Made by a program: the position numbers and the translations under genes. Source: Octopus vulgaris (Eukaryota). Taken from it: a DNA stretch of 64,000 bases. Shown one piece after another: positions 6,733-62,737 of the stretch; positions within the stretch are counted from its first letter, which is position 1, and every line of letters begins with the position of its first letter. The notes under the pieces are model-generated. The model was not told the origin of the DNA. It ran no database searches and saw only the letters and a list, made by a program, of their open reading frames with translations. The stretch spans positions 62,434,001 through 62,498,000 of the forward strand of contig OX597822.1 in NCBI GenBank assembly GCA_951406725.2, given 5' to 3'.

Positions 6733-6986
6733 CAACTTATCACTGACGAGCAGAAAATTCTTATGAATTAACTCTGAAATCGGGGCCGATATGATAATAA
6801 CGGAATTTTTTAGAAGTTTCTGGTGGCTTACAATATGGTTATTGACGATTTGTCAACTTTCGGCATATTTGGCATTAGAATTTTTTTTGCCCTTGTTTAT
6901 AAGTTGTTTATAAATTTAACCATTAAAGGTATTTTTTAATATGCTGGCCATTGATAGAATTTTTTCGAAAATTTTTATCCTATATT

Positions 6987-6990
<4 letters not shown>
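6733..6990 (+). mobile_element. Short element between (TA)n tracts with a degenerate type I HHR (6738-6791); same family as 62365-62700
   Basis: tatca-CTGACGA-...-GAAA-tcgg-ggc-cgata. About 200 bp downstream aligns with 62470-62690. The UH cleavage site is mutated in this copy. Confidence 0.65.
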
Positions 6991-7020
<30 letters not shown>

Positions 7021-13257: not shown

Positions 13258-13576
13258 TACGGAGATGTACTTGCATGGCAAGTGACCAGCTCTGAGATTG
13301 TGTGCTGGAACGAAAACAATTGCAGCGTGGAAGGTTTTTATAAGCCATTTAAGAAACACACAAAAACCGTTAGATTCACTTCAACATTTAAATTTAATTT
13401 GCCAAAATATTTTCGTCGCTTTGAGATCGCGACCTGTTCACTGACAAAATTCCGTCTCGCGGTCTCAAAGCGACGAAAATATTTTGGCAAATTAAATTTA
13501 AATGTTGAAGTGAATCTAACGGTTTTTGTGTGTTTCTTAAATGGCTTATAAACACCTTCCACGTTGCAATTGTTGT
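13258..13576. mobile_element. Fold-back insertion in a family A SINE with a 10-bp TSD
   Basis: Inverted arms are 13315-13432 and 13457-13574. CGGAAAGATT is duplicated at 13248-13257 and 13577-13586, and the SINE resumes after it. Confidence 0.85.
13400..13446 (-). ncRNA. Type I hammerhead ribozyme, G3:C8 variant
   Basis: UGUCA-GUGAACA-g-GUCGC-gaucucaaa-GCGAC-GAAA-auau-UU-UGGCA. Stems I and II pair, helix III is a palindromic loop, and the core shows a compensatory C3G/G8C change. Confidence 0.7.
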
Positions 13577-13959
13577 CGGAAAGATTGCTTTGCGGTATTT
13601 GTTCCGACAGTTCATATTCTGAGTTCAAATACCACTGGGATCAAATATGCCTTTCATCCTCTTGGGCTGCATAAAATGAAGTACTAATCTCGTACCATGG
13701 TCGACGGTATCGATTAATCCACTCAGAATTTCTGACCTTATGTTTATATTAGAAATGTTTATTAATTCTTACAGCATCTATCTTAGAAAAACCGCAGGTT
13801 ATAATAAACATTTGATAATAATCGTTTCAACTAAAAGCACAAGGCCTGGAATTTGCGGGGGGAGGAGACCAGTTGATTCCCCCCAGTCCAGTGTTTCACT
13901 GGTACTTATCGACTCCGAACGTATAAAAGGCGGAATTAAACACTTGATAATAATGATAA

Positions 13960-24104: not shown

Positions 24105-24325
24105 TTGGTTTATTGTCAGCGATGTCTACATCACTTGATCAATCCCCGAGAAAAAGGAAACCATTTGAAAACGTTGCTATATATATATATATATTACGTG
24201 TGTGTGTGTGTATGAGTGTGCATATGCTTAAGTATGTATATATATGTATGTGTGTAGCAACGTTTTCAAATGGTTTCCTTTTTCTCGGGGATTGATCAAG
24301 TGATGTAGACATCGCTGACAATAAA

Positions 24326-24329
<4 letters not shown>
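24105..24329. repeat. 75-bp inverted repeat (24105-24179 / 24255-24329) around a TA/TG spacer
   Basis: The arms are reverse complements; the ORFs on opposite strands give the same peptide (SAMSTSLDQSPRKRKPFENVA). Confidence 0.9.
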
Positions 24330-24399: not shown

Positions 24400-25028
24400 A
24401 AATTCAATAGAAATTATTTTCGCCACCAGCGGTCCAGTGAGAAAGAGAAAATAGTCACAGACTATATATATATAATTTCAACAATATTAAGGAATGGCCC
24501 TGATAGGCCATTCGACTCACTAGAAAGAGCAGCCAAACTCAAACCGCTAAATAGTAGTAATTCAGAAATCAAAGGAAAATTAAGAAACATTTACCCTAAT
24601 CATCTTTGGACAATGCGTTGTTTCGACGTACTTTTTGGCAAACCAGCCCAATTAAATTAAATTTAATTTAATCAAGTCAATTTACCAATGGCTCGTCTCA
24701 TCGGCAAAGAAGCCAGGAGGGATAAATATTCCACGAGGCAGCAGCATCGATGCCTCGGGAATATATACTCTAAATTTTCAAAATCTACCGTAATCGCGCC
24801 AACTTATCAGCAGCAAATATAAACTGCTGATTTAATTTCAGAATTAGTCAAAAAATCATTAAATTCAATAGAAATTATTTTCGCCTCCAGCAGTCCAGTG
24901 AGAAAGAGAAAATAGTCACAGACTATATATATATATAATTTCAACAATATTAAGGAATGGCCCTAATAGGCCATTCGACTCACTAGAAAGAGCAGCCAAA
25001 CTCAAACCGCTAAATAGTAGTAATTCAG
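24400..25028 (-). mobile_element. Partial tandem (461-bp period) HHR-containing element, retrozyme/pLTR-like
   Basis: Direct repeat at 24400-24565 / 24861-25028, with an HHR and several hairpins in the unique middle. Confidence 0.8.
24604..24709 (-). ncRNA. Type I hammerhead ribozyme with extended stem II and a real stem III (U4C core)
   Basis: CUUUG-CCGAUGA-GACG...CGUC-GAAA-CAA-cgca-UUG-UC-CAAAG. All three stems pair and the cleavage triplet is GUC. Confidence 0.8.
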
Positions 25029-25101
25029 TAACCGTGAGTAGATTTGGTAGACGGAAACTGAAAGAAGTCCATCGTATATATGTATATATATATATATATA
25101 T

Positions 25102-29246: not shown

Positions 29247-29728
29247 GGTTCAGTTTTTAAGAGATGAGGAATTATGTACATTATTTACATTATTTACATT
29301 TGACGGATATTTGTCCTTATCTTGTTTGTTGTAAACACAACGTTTCGGCTGATATACTTGCCTGCCAGCCACCATCAGGTGTCTTGGGGAAATTTCGAAC
29401 ATGGGTTCTCATACCTAAGGTATTTTTCAATGTTGTTGTTATTATTTTTATTATTCAGGACACTGCCTGGAATCGAACTCGGAATCTTGGTATTAAGAGC
29501 ATATGGCGTAGTGGTTAAGAACGCGGGCTACTAATCCCAAGATTCCGAGTTCGATTCCAGGCAGTGACCTGAATAATAATAATAATAATGAGAATAATAA
29601 TAATAATAATAACATCGAAAAATACCTTAGGAATGAAGGCTAGAGGGTATATCAGCCGAAACGTTGCGCTAACAACAAACAATATGAGGACAAATATCCG
29701 TCAAATGTAAATAATGTAAATAATGTAC
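29247..29728. mobile_element. Fold-back element with tRNA-like head and HHR, inserted in a family B SINE with a 9-bp TSD
   Basis: Inverted arms at about 29275-29490 / 29536-29728. GGT(C/T)GAGTC occurs at 29238-29246 and 29729-29737. A-box TGGCGTAGTGG at 29504-29514 and B-box GAGTTCGATTCC at 29547-29558. Confidence 0.8.
29334..29384 (-). ncRNA. Type I minimal hammerhead-like motif (core partly mutated in this copy)
   Basis: GACAC-CUGAUGG-ug-GGCUG...CAGCC-GAAA-cg-UU-GUGUU. The opposite arm (29633-29680) reads AUGAA-GGCU...AGCC-GAAA-cg-UU, which supports an ancestral CUGAUGA. Confidence 0.65.
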
Positions 29729-30621: not shown

Positions 30622-31700
30622 TCTCTTTATCACAGGTTTTGTTGGGACTCCTGGAGTCTTACATGCGTAGCAGGCTTGCTACCTGCAGTCTACAGTACCA
30701 TGCTATCCATTTTCTTTCAGCTATCTAATACTTTCCTGATTACTCTGGTCGTTCCAAGGAAGCAAAACGTCTGTAACAGTTGTACTGAACACTCTATTCT
30801 AATTTTCTTTATATTCCCCTTGATGCCTTATGATACCGTTCCCAAGGACGCAAGAATAACTGGAACTATCGTCACCTTCTTCATTTTCCATAGCCGGCTA
30901 TTTCGTACTTAAGTGGGTTGTATTTATTTATCTTTTCGTGTTTCTTCTTGACTATTCGTGGGTTAAAGGGGCATGCAACATCAACTATATAGCATATGTG
31001 GTACATCTTGTCGACCACCACGAAACCCGATTTGTTATACTCTAGCATCTGATCTGTTTGCATTGGGAAATCCTAGAGGATTTTGTTAGTCTCCGACTCC
31101 GCCACTCTCTGCGATTTGTGCCCATACCACGTCTTGCTTCTCTCTCGCTCCCACTCCTCGCACAGTTTTCAATGTAACACTATCGCTACCTGATCGTGTC
31201 GCCACAACTTGTAGTGGTTTTGGGCAAGTCTAGAACATTCGTTCGTGATATGGGTAATGATTTCATCCACACTATTGCAGATGCGGCACAGCGGAGTCAT
31301 TTGCTCATTCCTAAGGTTGACCCTCTAGTTTGTAGCCAAAGCTTGGTCTTGTGCTGCCAGTATAGGGCTCTCGGTCTCTTTTTTAGTGTTCTTTTTATCA
31401 GTCAATCTCGCCTATTTTTTCCAGCAACTTCTATTGTGGCAGCATGGAATTGATTGTGTAGTTCCTTCCTGCGTAATTATTTACAGTTCACCGGCCAACG
31501 CCCCTAACATTAGTTTCCACATTAGTGGAAAGAACGTTATCAGTCTAAAGTTGGATGAACAATTTCCCTTTTCAGGATCCTTGTCACACAAGAATATCTT
31601 TCCCCTTTGTCATCCAGCTGGGCACTGCGCCTTTCTGCAAGCGCTCATCTAGCTGCTGCGCTATCCTTTCATAGAGCCCTCTCAGCTTCTTCATCCAATA
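30622..31700 (-). mobile_element. Second R4/Dong-like REL LINE 3' remnant
   Basis: QTDQMLEYNKS...CYIVDVACPFNPRIVKKKHEKINKYNPLKYEI (REL motif). A zinc-finger region lies at about 31200-31300. The 3' end abuts (ATT)n at 30535-30621. Confidence 0.75.
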
Positions 31701-31724: not shown

Positions 31725-31787
31725 TTTTAAAAAATCTATACACATCTCAAAGTTTTAATACACATATAGACAATTTCATAGTTTAGC

Positions 31788-31854
<67 letters not shown>

Positions 31855-32106
31855 TAGTTTTATTTTTATAGCGTGCTTTCACTTCACAACCGAGCGCAGC
31901 TCTGTGTGCCTTGGGTATGTGCTGTGATTTGCTGTGATGCTCTGATGGTTATTGTATGGAAAGTTTTCTGCGTAGGACGTGTGCAGTACGCAGAACACTT
32001 TCTATACAATAACCATCAGAGCATCACAGCAAATCACAGCACATACCCAAGGCACACAGAGCTACGCTCGGTAGTGAAGTAAAAGAACGCTATAAAAATA
32101 AAACTA

Positions 32107-32161
<55 letters not shown>

Positions 32162-32230
32162 GTAATAGCTAAACTATGAACTTGTCTATATGTGTGCTAA
32201 AACTTTGAGATATGTATAGATTTTTTAAAA
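31725..32230. repeat. About 250-bp-arm fold-back built from an R4/Dong LINE 3' end, its (TAA)n tail and flanking DNA
   Basis: Arms are 31725-31974 / 31987-32230. The centre encodes H(V)LRRKLSIQ*, like the LINE C-terminus (compare AHILRNILFM at 86-469). Confidence 0.85.
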
Positions 32231-33256: not shown

Positions 33257-33338
33257 TTTATTTAAAGCAGCAGAAAATTCAACAAAATCTGTTACTCTGA
33301 GTTTCACGTTCCCGTTCGTCGGACAGTTTTTGCTAGAA

Positions 33339-33376
33339 CTGTCCGACGAACGGGAACGTGAAACTCAGAGTAACAG
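33339..33376 (+). ncRNA. Type I minimal hammerhead ribozyme (U4C core); identical copy on the minus strand at 33289-33326
   Basis: CUGU-CCGACGA-ACG-ggaa-CGU-GAAA-CUC-a-GAG-UA-ACAG, within a perfect 42-bp inverted repeat at 33287-33328 / 33337-33378. Confidence 0.8.
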
Positions 33377-33445
33377 ATATATTTATAATAAGAGTAGATC
33401 GTATACGAGTGGGTATATATTTGTAAAAAAGAAGTTTGAAAACGC

Positions 33446-33759: not shown

Positions 33760-34286
33760 GTCTTGAGATTGTGGATTCTGGAGTGTTTTGCTTAGATTGC
33801 ATTTCTGGATTGAAAGTTTCCTGTGTAGAATGTAGGCTGTTCCTAGCAGGGCTATTTTTCGGACAGTGTGTAGGGCCGAGGGTCAAGGTATAGTTTCTAC
33901 GTTTTTGTTCATATATTTGTTTTTATCATACCCAGTCCTTTAATTATTACTGGTAGTATTTTTACCTTCATGTCCCACATCTTGAATTCTTCAATTTCGA
34001 GGTCGTTGTGATTTGACAATTTCTCCACTTCTTTTGGAGGTAATATCTTGGTCAGAAACGACTTTAATGTCTATCAGTAAGCCGGTGGTTCTTTTTTGTC
34101 CAATCCTTGATTATTATGTCTGGGGATTAGCTTTTATTTCTTGGTCAGTTTAAACAGACATATCCCAGATAATTGTGACCTGGTCGTGTAGGTTGTTTGG
34201 CACATGTTTATGTCATTTCTTGTTATTTCTTATGTTGCAGTGTTGGCATATTGTCGATGTCTTTATACATACATACATACATACAT

Positions 34287-34337
<51 letters not shown>

Positions 34338-34737
34338 GATATATATATATATAATAGAAATATTAAAATTACTAAGTCTCTCTAAAAGAGATCGCGACAG
34401 CGCTACTGGAAATTAATTGATATCGCCATACTAATATGGTAGTCTTATATAAGACTAAAACTGTCGCTTATTAGCTCCATGAGGCCATCCGCCTTAAGAT
34501 AGCTACTTGATACACAAACTGTATCCATTTTAAGCATTCGAACAAGGGAGGTCAGCCGCTTCACACTGCTAGTCCAACAGCTACAGACGCGTTTCAGGGT
34601 ATTTGCCCTTTGTCAATGTAGCGTAGCCAGACCCAGCAGGTGTCGCCACTAACGTCTCTGTTCGAAGGCCTTTATTTACCTAGTTTCGGTGGAATACATC
34701 CACTTGTTTTCAATAATAGAAATATTAAAATTACTAA

Positions 34738-34818
<81 letters not shown>

Positions 34819-34975
34819 GATTTGACAAGGACTGGGCAGCCAGCGATGATGTGGTCATTATGCTGGGTGCACATTCTGCATTTTGTGTTAAGGCCTGTTT
34901 TCATTATTTTGCTTTTATAGTTGTTTGAGGTGAGGCATTGGTCTTGTGCACACAAATAAAGTAGCCCCAACACTA
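33760..34975 (-). mobile_element. Third R4/Dong-like LINE remnant, interrupted by microsatellites and an HHR element (about 34262-34815)
   Basis: AQDQCLTSNNYKSKIMK...KCRMCTQHNDHIIAGCPVLVKSEYI at 34815-34973. A decayed REL region (..EIKANPQT..LLIDIKV..DLEIE) lies at about 33950-34200. A further RT-like scrap is on the plus strand at about 35040-35300. Confidence 0.7.
34580..34622 (-). ncRNA. Type I minimal hammerhead ribozyme, U3:A8 variant
   Basis: GCUACA-UUGACAA-AGGG-caaaua-CCCU-GAAA-cgcg-UC-UGUAGC, with perfect stems I and II. It lies in unit 34351-34739, which has a 27-bp terminal direct repeat. Confidence 0.8.
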
Positions 34976-36105
34976 CTAGAATATATCAACCATGCAATGG
35001 CAAACTAGAAAAATGAATCGAGAGTCATTAAAACCTGCCCTATACCCATAAGAGACTCACTTTCACCCCCTGCTTTCCTACCTTACTCTGACACGACTAA
35101 TAGACTTGCTAAAGAAACATGGGTTACAGATAACTTGAAAATTTTCATTAAAAATACCACGGAACATAAAAACCTAAAAGTTGTCCCTAGTTTCAGCAAG
35201 AACCTTCATCCATGGGTTGGATAAATGTGTCAAAGTGAAATTGAGAAGAGGCAAATTAATCAGCACTAGAAACACTGCACTCGAAAGAGACACAGAAACA
35301 GAGAATTAGACAACAATTGTTTTCTGGTAATCAATCTAAGTCATGTTGAGCTTTGTCTTTTTCTTTTAGTTTTTAACTCCTTTTGTTTCTGTACACTAAA
35401 AATCTATAGAACAAACCACAGACAGGGAATTTTGACAATCAAACAATATCTGTATATGCAATATTTATTTTGTGAATTTAACACTTTCATAATTGGGATG
35501 CCTGTGAGATCCTCTAGGTGTAGTTATTTGACTTTGATCAGCAAGAATCTTTACGTCTGATACATGCCCAACACTGAGACCAGCACACAACTTACCATTT
35601 GTGAATATGATAGTAACATTGTAAAGAAAGTATTGTAAAGAAATATAACAGAGAAAAACAAATATTTATTCCTAAGTTTTCTTATGAGAAATTTAAAGAA
35701 TAGAGACTCCTCATTTTCTTTGCATTTTGTAATAAAATTAATTCTTTTAAAAGAAATTTTCTATTTTTGAAAGTAGTAGGCTAACGTCTTTAACACAAAT
35801 ATTAAAATACATACATACATGCATACATACATAACCACATGCATAAATACACACATGCATACATATGTACATACATACAGAAGGAGAGGGTGAGAGGAGA
35901 GGTTTTTGCGATTAGAGATCGAAATAAAAACAGATATTATATTTCATTCATGATAAACTACTCGGTAATAAAATTTATTTCAAAATGAACGTAAGAAAGT
36001 AATCGTTCAACTATTTTTCTGAAATGATTGAATACAGGAAACTGAAGTGGACAGTGCCTGTGAGTCATCTCGGCTGGTTATGTATTGGGTGAAGATAAAA
36101 GCAAT

Positions 36106-39839: not shown

Positions 39840-40509
39840 TCAGTTGAATAAAGTTACAACATGTTCTGGTTTTCAGTTTTTTTATTATTGTATTTTAAAA
39901 ACAAATTTTTACAATGTTGAAGTATGTTAAAATTTAAAAAGATATTTTGTAATCTTCATAAAGTTCAATTAGCGCTTTCACACGTTCGTAGTAATAATCA
40001 GATTTTAAAATGTATTGACTGACAGTAGAGCTGAGTGCTTGACAATTGCAGTAAAATGACTGGCTTCTTCCTTTTTATACCTTTTAGAAGGCTCCGACAA
40101 ACTGAATTTTTCGAACACGGTTTTGACCAATCAGCATGATTCTTAAACGTCACAGTTTGCCGGGCGCACCGATATTACTGGCATATATTCCGCCTTTATT
40201 TTAAGCAAATAGTTTTTCGGTTTACGTGCAATGCTTTTATTAGTGAGCAAACTTAGTTGGTTTCGATCGTTTTTATTTCAATCGGTGAGAGTCTTCTGTA
40301 ATTAGTTCATATCCTTATGCTACAGATATTTTTTAATCCACATCATTAATCATTAATTATTATTTTAATCCACATCTGAACGGAAATAACAACAATAATA
40401 TAACAATCAGTTAATGATGTGGATTAAAGAAATCTTTAACATATTTTTAAAATACAATAATAAAAAAAAAACATGAGAACCAGACCATATTGTAGCATTC
40501 TTCAACTGA
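39840..40509. mobile_element. Non-autonomous DNA transposon with imperfect ~60-bp TIRs and TA flanks
   Basis: TA|TCAGTTGAA...TTCAACTGA|TA. The arms 39840-39900 and 40445-40509 are diverged reverse complements. Confidence 0.65.
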
Positions 40510-62346: not shown

Positions 62347-62410
62347 ATATATGTATATATACAGCTTCCATGGGTATGAGTAAGTATCTCATTTATTTCC
62401 TTACCACATT

Positions 62411-62469
62411 TATCACTGACGAAGGGAGGGTTCTTACGAACTAACCCTGAAATCGGTCCGATATGGTAA
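62411..62469 (+). ncRNA. Type I hammerhead ribozyme in a (TA)n-bounded unit (about 62365-62700)
   Basis: UUACCA..UAUCa-CUGACGA-AGGG...CCCU-GAAA-ucgg-UC-cGAUA-UGGUAA. Stem I is extended with a bulge and has one core-proximal mismatch. Confidence 0.72.
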
Positions 62470-62696
62470 TAATGGAATATTTTAGAGATTTCTGTCGACC
62501 TTTTTTTGAGTAGCGTGCGAACTGTGGAAAATTACATGGTTATGGACAGGGTGTCTAATTTCGGCATATTTGGCATTAGAAATTTTTTCGTTTGCCCTTC
62601 TTTATAAGTTGTTTATAAATTTAACCTTTAAAGGTATTTTTTTATATGCTGCCCATTGATAAAATTTTTTTCGAAAAAGTTTTATACTACATTAAA

Positions 62697-62737
<41 letters not shown>

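Follow-up and report, generated by a model that had tools for sequence, protein, structure and literature searches.

In the 64-kb stretch of Octopus vulgaris DNA that was analysed (contig OX597822.1, here called the window), a non-coding repeat unit of 362 bp with a GC content of 41.7% occupies positions 34351..34712 on the minus strand and represents one member of a high-copy family. Its limits are marked by a 27-bp repeat. The copy at 34351-34377 (minus strand) is borne by the element itself, forms the 3' end of the ribozyme strand and is a putative Penelope-type tail and reverse-transcription start, and an identical copy at 34713-34739 (minus strand) forms a terminal redundancy at the 5' end. 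The pair is exact, with a period of 362, and the 27-mer occurs only these two times in the window; identity stops at its borders, with no extension on either side of either copy. By chance about 1e-8 exact 27-mer pairs at most 1 kb apart would be expected in 64 kb, or 1e-3 under an AT-only worst case. The original prediction of a 362-bp monomer with a 27-bp terminal redundancy was therefore accurate. No open reading frame of at least 100 codons overlaps the unit, the RT/GIY-YIG frame of an autonomous Penelope-like element is absent from it, and no tRNA-like head was found on it.

The ribozyme was expected in the middle of the element rather than at an end, with a U3:A8 core, and this is where it lies: a type I hammerhead motif is located at 34580..34622 on the minus strand. 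Helix I consists of 6 bp (34622-34617 pairing with 34585-34580), the core U3-U4-G5-A6-C7-A8-A9 (UUGACAA) is found at 34616-34610, helix II has 4 bp and a loop of 6 nt followed by GAAA at 34595-34592, and helix III is the 2-bp palindromic ACGCGU, with cleavage predicted after C17 at 34586 (34586/34585). The motif has the features of type I hammerheads, namely the 3:8 pair, G5, A6, A9, G12-A13-A14, U16.1-H17 and three helices, and it departs from the canon in the U3:A8 pair and in the A-U pair at the base of helix II. The ribozyme call is based on this anatomy because Rfam models do not score the motif: nothing in Rfam reached the gathering thresholds and no hammerhead appeared even at E<=5. A relaxed motif scan returned 3 hammerhead motifs in the window, compared with 2 hits across 20 shuffled windows. 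Loose A-box-like and B-box-like motifs lie 21 nt apart just downstream of the predicted cut (34576-34535, minus strand); the match to the box consensus is probably a matter of chance.

The predicted fold of the whole unit reaches -120.1 kcal/mol (z -5.7), a stability equalled by 0 of 100 shuffles, and it contains a long predicted stem at 34531..34671 (minus strand) with the hammerhead at its tip. Folded as circles, the antisense strand is also stable (z -4.6 vs -5.0 for the ribozyme strand), and a stable fold by itself does not therefore single out one strand. For a pair of motif copies the predicted co-fold is a double hammerhead at -31.5 kcal/mol, as against 2 x -13.1 kcal/mol for the separate motifs, with an intermolecular helix III of 6 bp, and on the strength of this predicted fold the ribozyme may cleave itself in dimer form. 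Cleavage of Penelope hammerheads as dimers has reportedly been observed in one study.

The unit is nested in a decayed LINE, as had been proposed, and stands between simple repeats: a compound microsatellite (ATAC)n(AC)n(AT)n at about 34263-34350 on the left and a (TA)n tract at 34740..34815 on the right. The upstream half of the interrupted LINE (34816..35070, minus strand, outer limit approximate) encodes a cysteine/histidine knuckle ending in KSEY and was recognised by tblastn at 34955-34815 (E 2e-6), and the downstream half (33830..34262, minus strand, outer limit approximate) encodes an endonuclease-like region recognised at 34034-33924 (E 3e-8). Both halves match the LINE copy at 86-1362, with 38% identity over 50 aa and 57% over 37 aa in tblastn. 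In minus-strand translation the right flank ends in ...KSEY and the left one resumes with IK..., and the LINE reading frame is continuous between these two points when the 27-mer is left out. The interrupted LINE is presumably R4/Dong-like, a label that does not come from a database match; for the related copy, no name reached significance in Pfam or PDB. The original target was a short TA run, which is now represented by long microsatellites on both sides, and at this one locus the target is (TA)n/AT-rich and shows no clear target-site duplication (TSD). The interrupted LINE has two other decayed relatives on the minus strand, at 86-1609 and 30896-31384.

Part of the queried stretch was detected in 20 of the 24 listed sequencing runs, and at least half of its words in 5 of them; none of the runs that contain it is recorded as RNA. 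The contig comparison took in four of these 24 runs, three DNA runs and a fourth (X9) whose RNA label is presumed. The DNA runs, which carry two species labels, contain 1956, 1598 and 1323 contigs on the unit and cover all 30 bins, and the 362-bp unit is thus a multi-copy family of high copy number. X9 has only 9 contigs on the unit and is uninformative on expression or circularity. At 13 of 335 sites the window copy departs from the majority allele that the three DNA runs have in common. Of the 39 variant sites listed, none affects U3 or A8 and only one falls within the 43-nt motif, a modest depletion (P 0.025) that was looked for post hoc. A minor form without one base near core position 7 is carried by 4 contigs in run X3 and 1 in X9. 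Within the long stem, three majority alleles change a G-U pair to a Watson-Crick pair, one weakens a pair, one breaks a pair and one is unpaired. The exact patterns had no match in viral contigs or in prokaryotic genomes, and a degenerate ribozyme pattern found two loci in metagenome contigs, neither of them of this family. One, at 807-848 on the minus strand of a contig that is probably animal host DNA, is a C3:G8 hammerhead beside a (TTC)n tract; it is unrelated, although its helix III is also the ACGCGU palindrome. The other is a chance match in a prokaryotic contig.

A 27-bp direct repeat around an insert could be read as a TSD, and the original prediction would have failed if the 27-mer were target sequence missing from other copies. 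The repeat is AT-rich, and the TSDs of metazoan retrozymes, when present, exceed 4 bp according to PMC7229834. Nevertheless, the 27-mer has no place in the rejoined LINE frame. The left end is reached by five of the 24 DNA contig pieces listed. They differ from the window copy at 7-11 sites each, as befits copies from other loci, and all five include the 27-mer joined to the body, while none of the 39 listed variant sites falls inside it. The 27-mer is accordingly treated as element sequence, and the TSD reading is rejected as extremely improbable.

Evidence on where the copies end was drawn from 24 of 312 loose ends and 32 of 4931 pieces. The five left-end pieces stop within 1 base of 34351, a place where a variant at 34382 could also break contigs; both short joints among those listed land on 34351/34352, and one X9 contig departs into unrelated sequence at 34355. 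Four X3 contigs pass at about 34460 into a microsatellite-like tract, which is what 5' truncation of a copy would produce. A single listed contig enters the right 27-mer from the body, by 6 nt. In the three DNA runs 332, 213 and 176 contigs run over the unit ends. No head-to-tail junction contig is present among the 32 of 4931 pieces, which is no evidence either way, and no pile-up of internal ends is listed, one of the 24 loose ends shown appearing to leave internally into a microsatellite. The 5'-end pile-up at the ribozyme cut site that is expected of linear cut monomers is likewise not listed, contigs being a weak source for this. These sparse data lean towards a fixed 3' end at about 34351-34355 with variable 5' ends, which is the usual Penelope pattern.

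Summed contig depth has a median of 0.53-0.74 M in the end bins and of 0.09-0.16 M in the interior, although depth does not equal copy number. Both 34676-34739 and 34351-34389 exceed the interior 4-8-fold in this depth, and on a tandem or circular map the two segments form one block. Possible reasons for the deep block are a cis site that is conserved, sequence held in common with other families, or branching of the graph at the ends. Its part at 34676..34712 (minus strand), which follows the 27-mer on such a map, is a possible cis site for reverse transcriptase (RT).

Further hammerhead-bearing repeats are present in the window. The reasoning of a permuted monomer had been extended to 24400-25028; the element at 24400-25031 (minus strand) is an ordinary Penelope-type partial tandem made of a 461-bp unit and a 171-bp 5'-truncated copy that are 96.5% identical. 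Its hammerhead is of type I and is built around a C4 core (CCGAUGA at 24704). Helix II holds an AT-rich insert of roughly 65 nt, helix III measures 4 bp, and cleavage is predicted after 24609. A second TA-flanked hammerhead family lies on the plus strand at 6737-7020 and about 62350-62727 (77% identical, core at 62416). Between cut site and 3' end the 362-bp unit has 235 nt, compared with 209 nt for the 24400 element and about 230 nt for the 62416 copy. At about 54760-53820 on the minus strand there is a frameshifted endonuclease remnant, GIY-YIG-type by motif likeness to sequences in the PMC8557442 supplement. Behind it come a degenerate hammerhead-like motif (near 53940-53910) and (TA)n. The remnant resembles the 3' terminus of an autonomous Penelope-like element and suggests that Penelope enzymes once existed in this genome. 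A 92-bp near-perfect palindrome between TA tracts (33287-33378) encloses a C4 hammerhead-like core, the downstream part of which resembles a Hydra-clade 3' end in the same supplement. Long inverted repeats occur at 13311-13578, 24105-24329, 29276-29728, 31725-32230 and 40316-40443, some at least centred on microsatellites, and are possibly inverted Penelope ends or MITEs.

Taken together, the locus holds a high-copy, non-coding unit with a hammerhead motif and a 27-bp redundancy, which is probably a non-autonomous Penelope passenger (a non-LTR retrozyme) copied into a TA site from tandem or circular RNA. A tandem source locus would be transcribed on the ribozyme strand, and two hammerheads pairing through the palindromic helix III may release RNA of unit length that could be ligated into a 362-nt circle. 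A Penelope RT-endonuclease acting in trans would nick a TA tract and begin cDNA synthesis at an internal position that is fixed and lies about 235 nt beyond the cut site in the 3' direction. Synthesis would mostly halt early and leave 5'-truncated copies; here it would have covered one unit and 27 nt, so that the tail came to stand at either end. Having a single ribozyme and lacking a second unit, the window copy is probably a dead end. The second hammerhead family supports this account, its two window copies (compared over 6737-7020 and 62410-62727) having a common TA-flanked 3' end and different 5' ends. No autonomous partner sharing the sequence of the unit was found in the window, the GIY-YIG remnant included, and the 10-base helix III motif has no match in the supplement of PMC8557442.

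The template itself had been proposed to be circular or tandem RNA. This part of the original prediction stands insofar as a unit plus an overshoot passes through the cut site; RNA cut at two hammerheads starts at 34585 and cannot yield such a copy, so an uncut tandem or a ligated circle is likely unless an array has collapsed, and from one copy these three cannot be told apart. Given a Penelope passenger, an uncut tandem transcript is judged the somewhat likelier template and a ligated circle the somewhat less likely one. The logic of circular or tandem templates is reasonable for such elements and is already in print. Another part of the prediction, that copies should begin at different points of the permutation, finds no support, as the visible ends cluster at 34351-34355, with few contigs being informative.

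That clustering bears directly on the idea that the point of RT entry into a 362-nt circle varies and that synthesis travels just over one lap, leaving random circular permutations as copies. It would explain a ribozyme in mid-element with a short redundancy and a high summed depth that is continuous across the ends only on a circular map, and circular templates have been proposed for Penelope elements and retrozymes (PMC4209133, PMC7229834). The absence of any listed pile-up of internal ends agrees with the clustering in speaking against it, and in the one element tested in vitro initiation took place at defined internal sites with ribozyme cleavage dispensable (PMC11167929); random entry is accordingly held to be improbable. 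The sequence following the 3' end is present only where units stand in tandem or form a circle, and it corresponds to the deep block, which favours a fixed internal start by a Penelope enzyme. The excess depth at the ends could, on the other hand, be taken as a sign that they are common to another family, the unit being a rare product that an autonomous Penelope element leaves by internal deletion or 5' truncation and not a small family that propagates itself. Each of the three DNA runs nevertheless covers all 30 bins, contigs 70-145 bases long overlap one another along the unit, no skip joint leads to a long insert and the unit lacks overlap with any frame of at least 100 codons, so that a by-product is very improbable, a little more so than random entry.

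An origin at the DNA level, by recombination that collapsed an inserted tandem array to one unit and 27 bp or by insertion of a full unit beside an earlier tail-only copy, is also unlikely, if slightly less so than random entry. Any array ending in the tail would be expected to collapse to this form, the 27-mer is partly doubled in two contigs, Penelope elements are described as inserting into or beside their own copies, and with 13 of 335 differences from the majority allele the window copy may be old enough. The two 27-mers are, however, identical (P about 0.12 at that divergence, a weak argument), and an extra event is needed for a form that a fixed start at the tail yields directly. The fixed start on a tandem or circular RNA thus remains the preferred explanation. 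A stronger version, in which the unit with 27 additional nucleotides is the dominant full-length form of the family and RT begins at one constant site of a 362-nt circle produced by the ribozyme, passes once around and stops a fixed 27 nt later, is doubtful, though less so than the alternatives above. Should it be true, the family would carry the genomic footprint of circular RNA, and not of an uncut tandem transcript, as retrotransposition template, and some of the "long TSDs" of animal retrozymes would be tails.

The role of hammerheads in Penelope transposition is debated, circles having been proposed as templates whereas uncut RNA was the main substrate in vitro. A small and very abundant family with a measurable overshoot makes the template question testable by counting ends. 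The family also adds an abundant retrozyme-type element with a U3:A8 ribozyme in an animal genome, and joins a retrozyme-sized unit and a Penelope tail in one copy, which fits animal retrozymes riding on Penelope enzymes. A search of the openly accessible literature on octopus hammerhead ribozymes and cephalopod non-autonomous Penelope elements returned no description of the family or of the signature of unit and tail.

The element likely works as a non-autonomous Penelope passenger, and it has the retrozyme features of size, GC content, hammerhead and copy number. According to PMC7229834 and bioRxiv 10.64898/2026.07.22.740005, metazoan non-LTR retrozymes are comparable in being non-coding, in a GC content under 45%, in a single type I hammerhead and in a highly self-paired predicted fold, and the 362 bp of the octopus unit fall within their range of about 150-450 bp. 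Mussel retrozyme units measure 350-390 bp and are expressed as circles (PMC7229834). Dispersed monomers are known among non-LTR retrozymes and Penelope has been proposed as their motor (both sources); the bioRxiv text also reports such monomers and ties retrozymes to pLTRs. Unlike non-LTR retrozymes in tandem, the locus at 34351-34739 is a monomer, and it differs further in its U3:A8 core and 2-bp palindromic helix III. A 27-bp redundancy borne by the element is not described for non-LTR retrozymes in the sections consulted of the two sources.

The arrangement of a hammerhead upstream of a short tail resembles the pLTR and "tail" of EN+ Penelope-like elements (Penelope/Poseidon, Neptune and Hydra), as given in PMC8557442, PMC11167929 and PMC3846280, and so do the TA/AT-rich target without a discernible TSD, the apparent 5' truncation and the partial tandems. 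In those elements a tail of 30-40 bp may stand at either end and (TA)n is targeted (PMC8557442); the tail of 27 bp is slightly below this size, and the window unit is without the RT or GIY-YIG frame of EN+ elements. For the anole Poseidon element PMC11167929 describes reverse transcription in vitro that starts at two internal sites which define the tail, depends on RNA beyond the start site, favours AT-rich DNA and does without ribozyme cleavage, uncut RNA being the main substrate. From the positions given there, the distance between cut site and main start site is computed as roughly 85-92 nt, compared with 235 nt from cut site to 3' end here. PMC3846280, PMC7761336 and PMC6765202 agree with the published picture of Penelope elements and retrozymes. 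The closest likeness in the ribozyme core, compared by anatomy only, is that to the minimal U3-A8 hammerheads of Schistosoma Cercyon, which share the core covariation, the type I form and the dimer dependence predicted here, and differ in a helix II of 7-8 bp (4 bp here) and a helix I of 4-5 bp (6 bp here). For these Schistosoma Penelope elements, with their U3-A8 cores and dimer-type helix III, PMC4209133 proposes circles as templates for more-than-unit reverse transcription.
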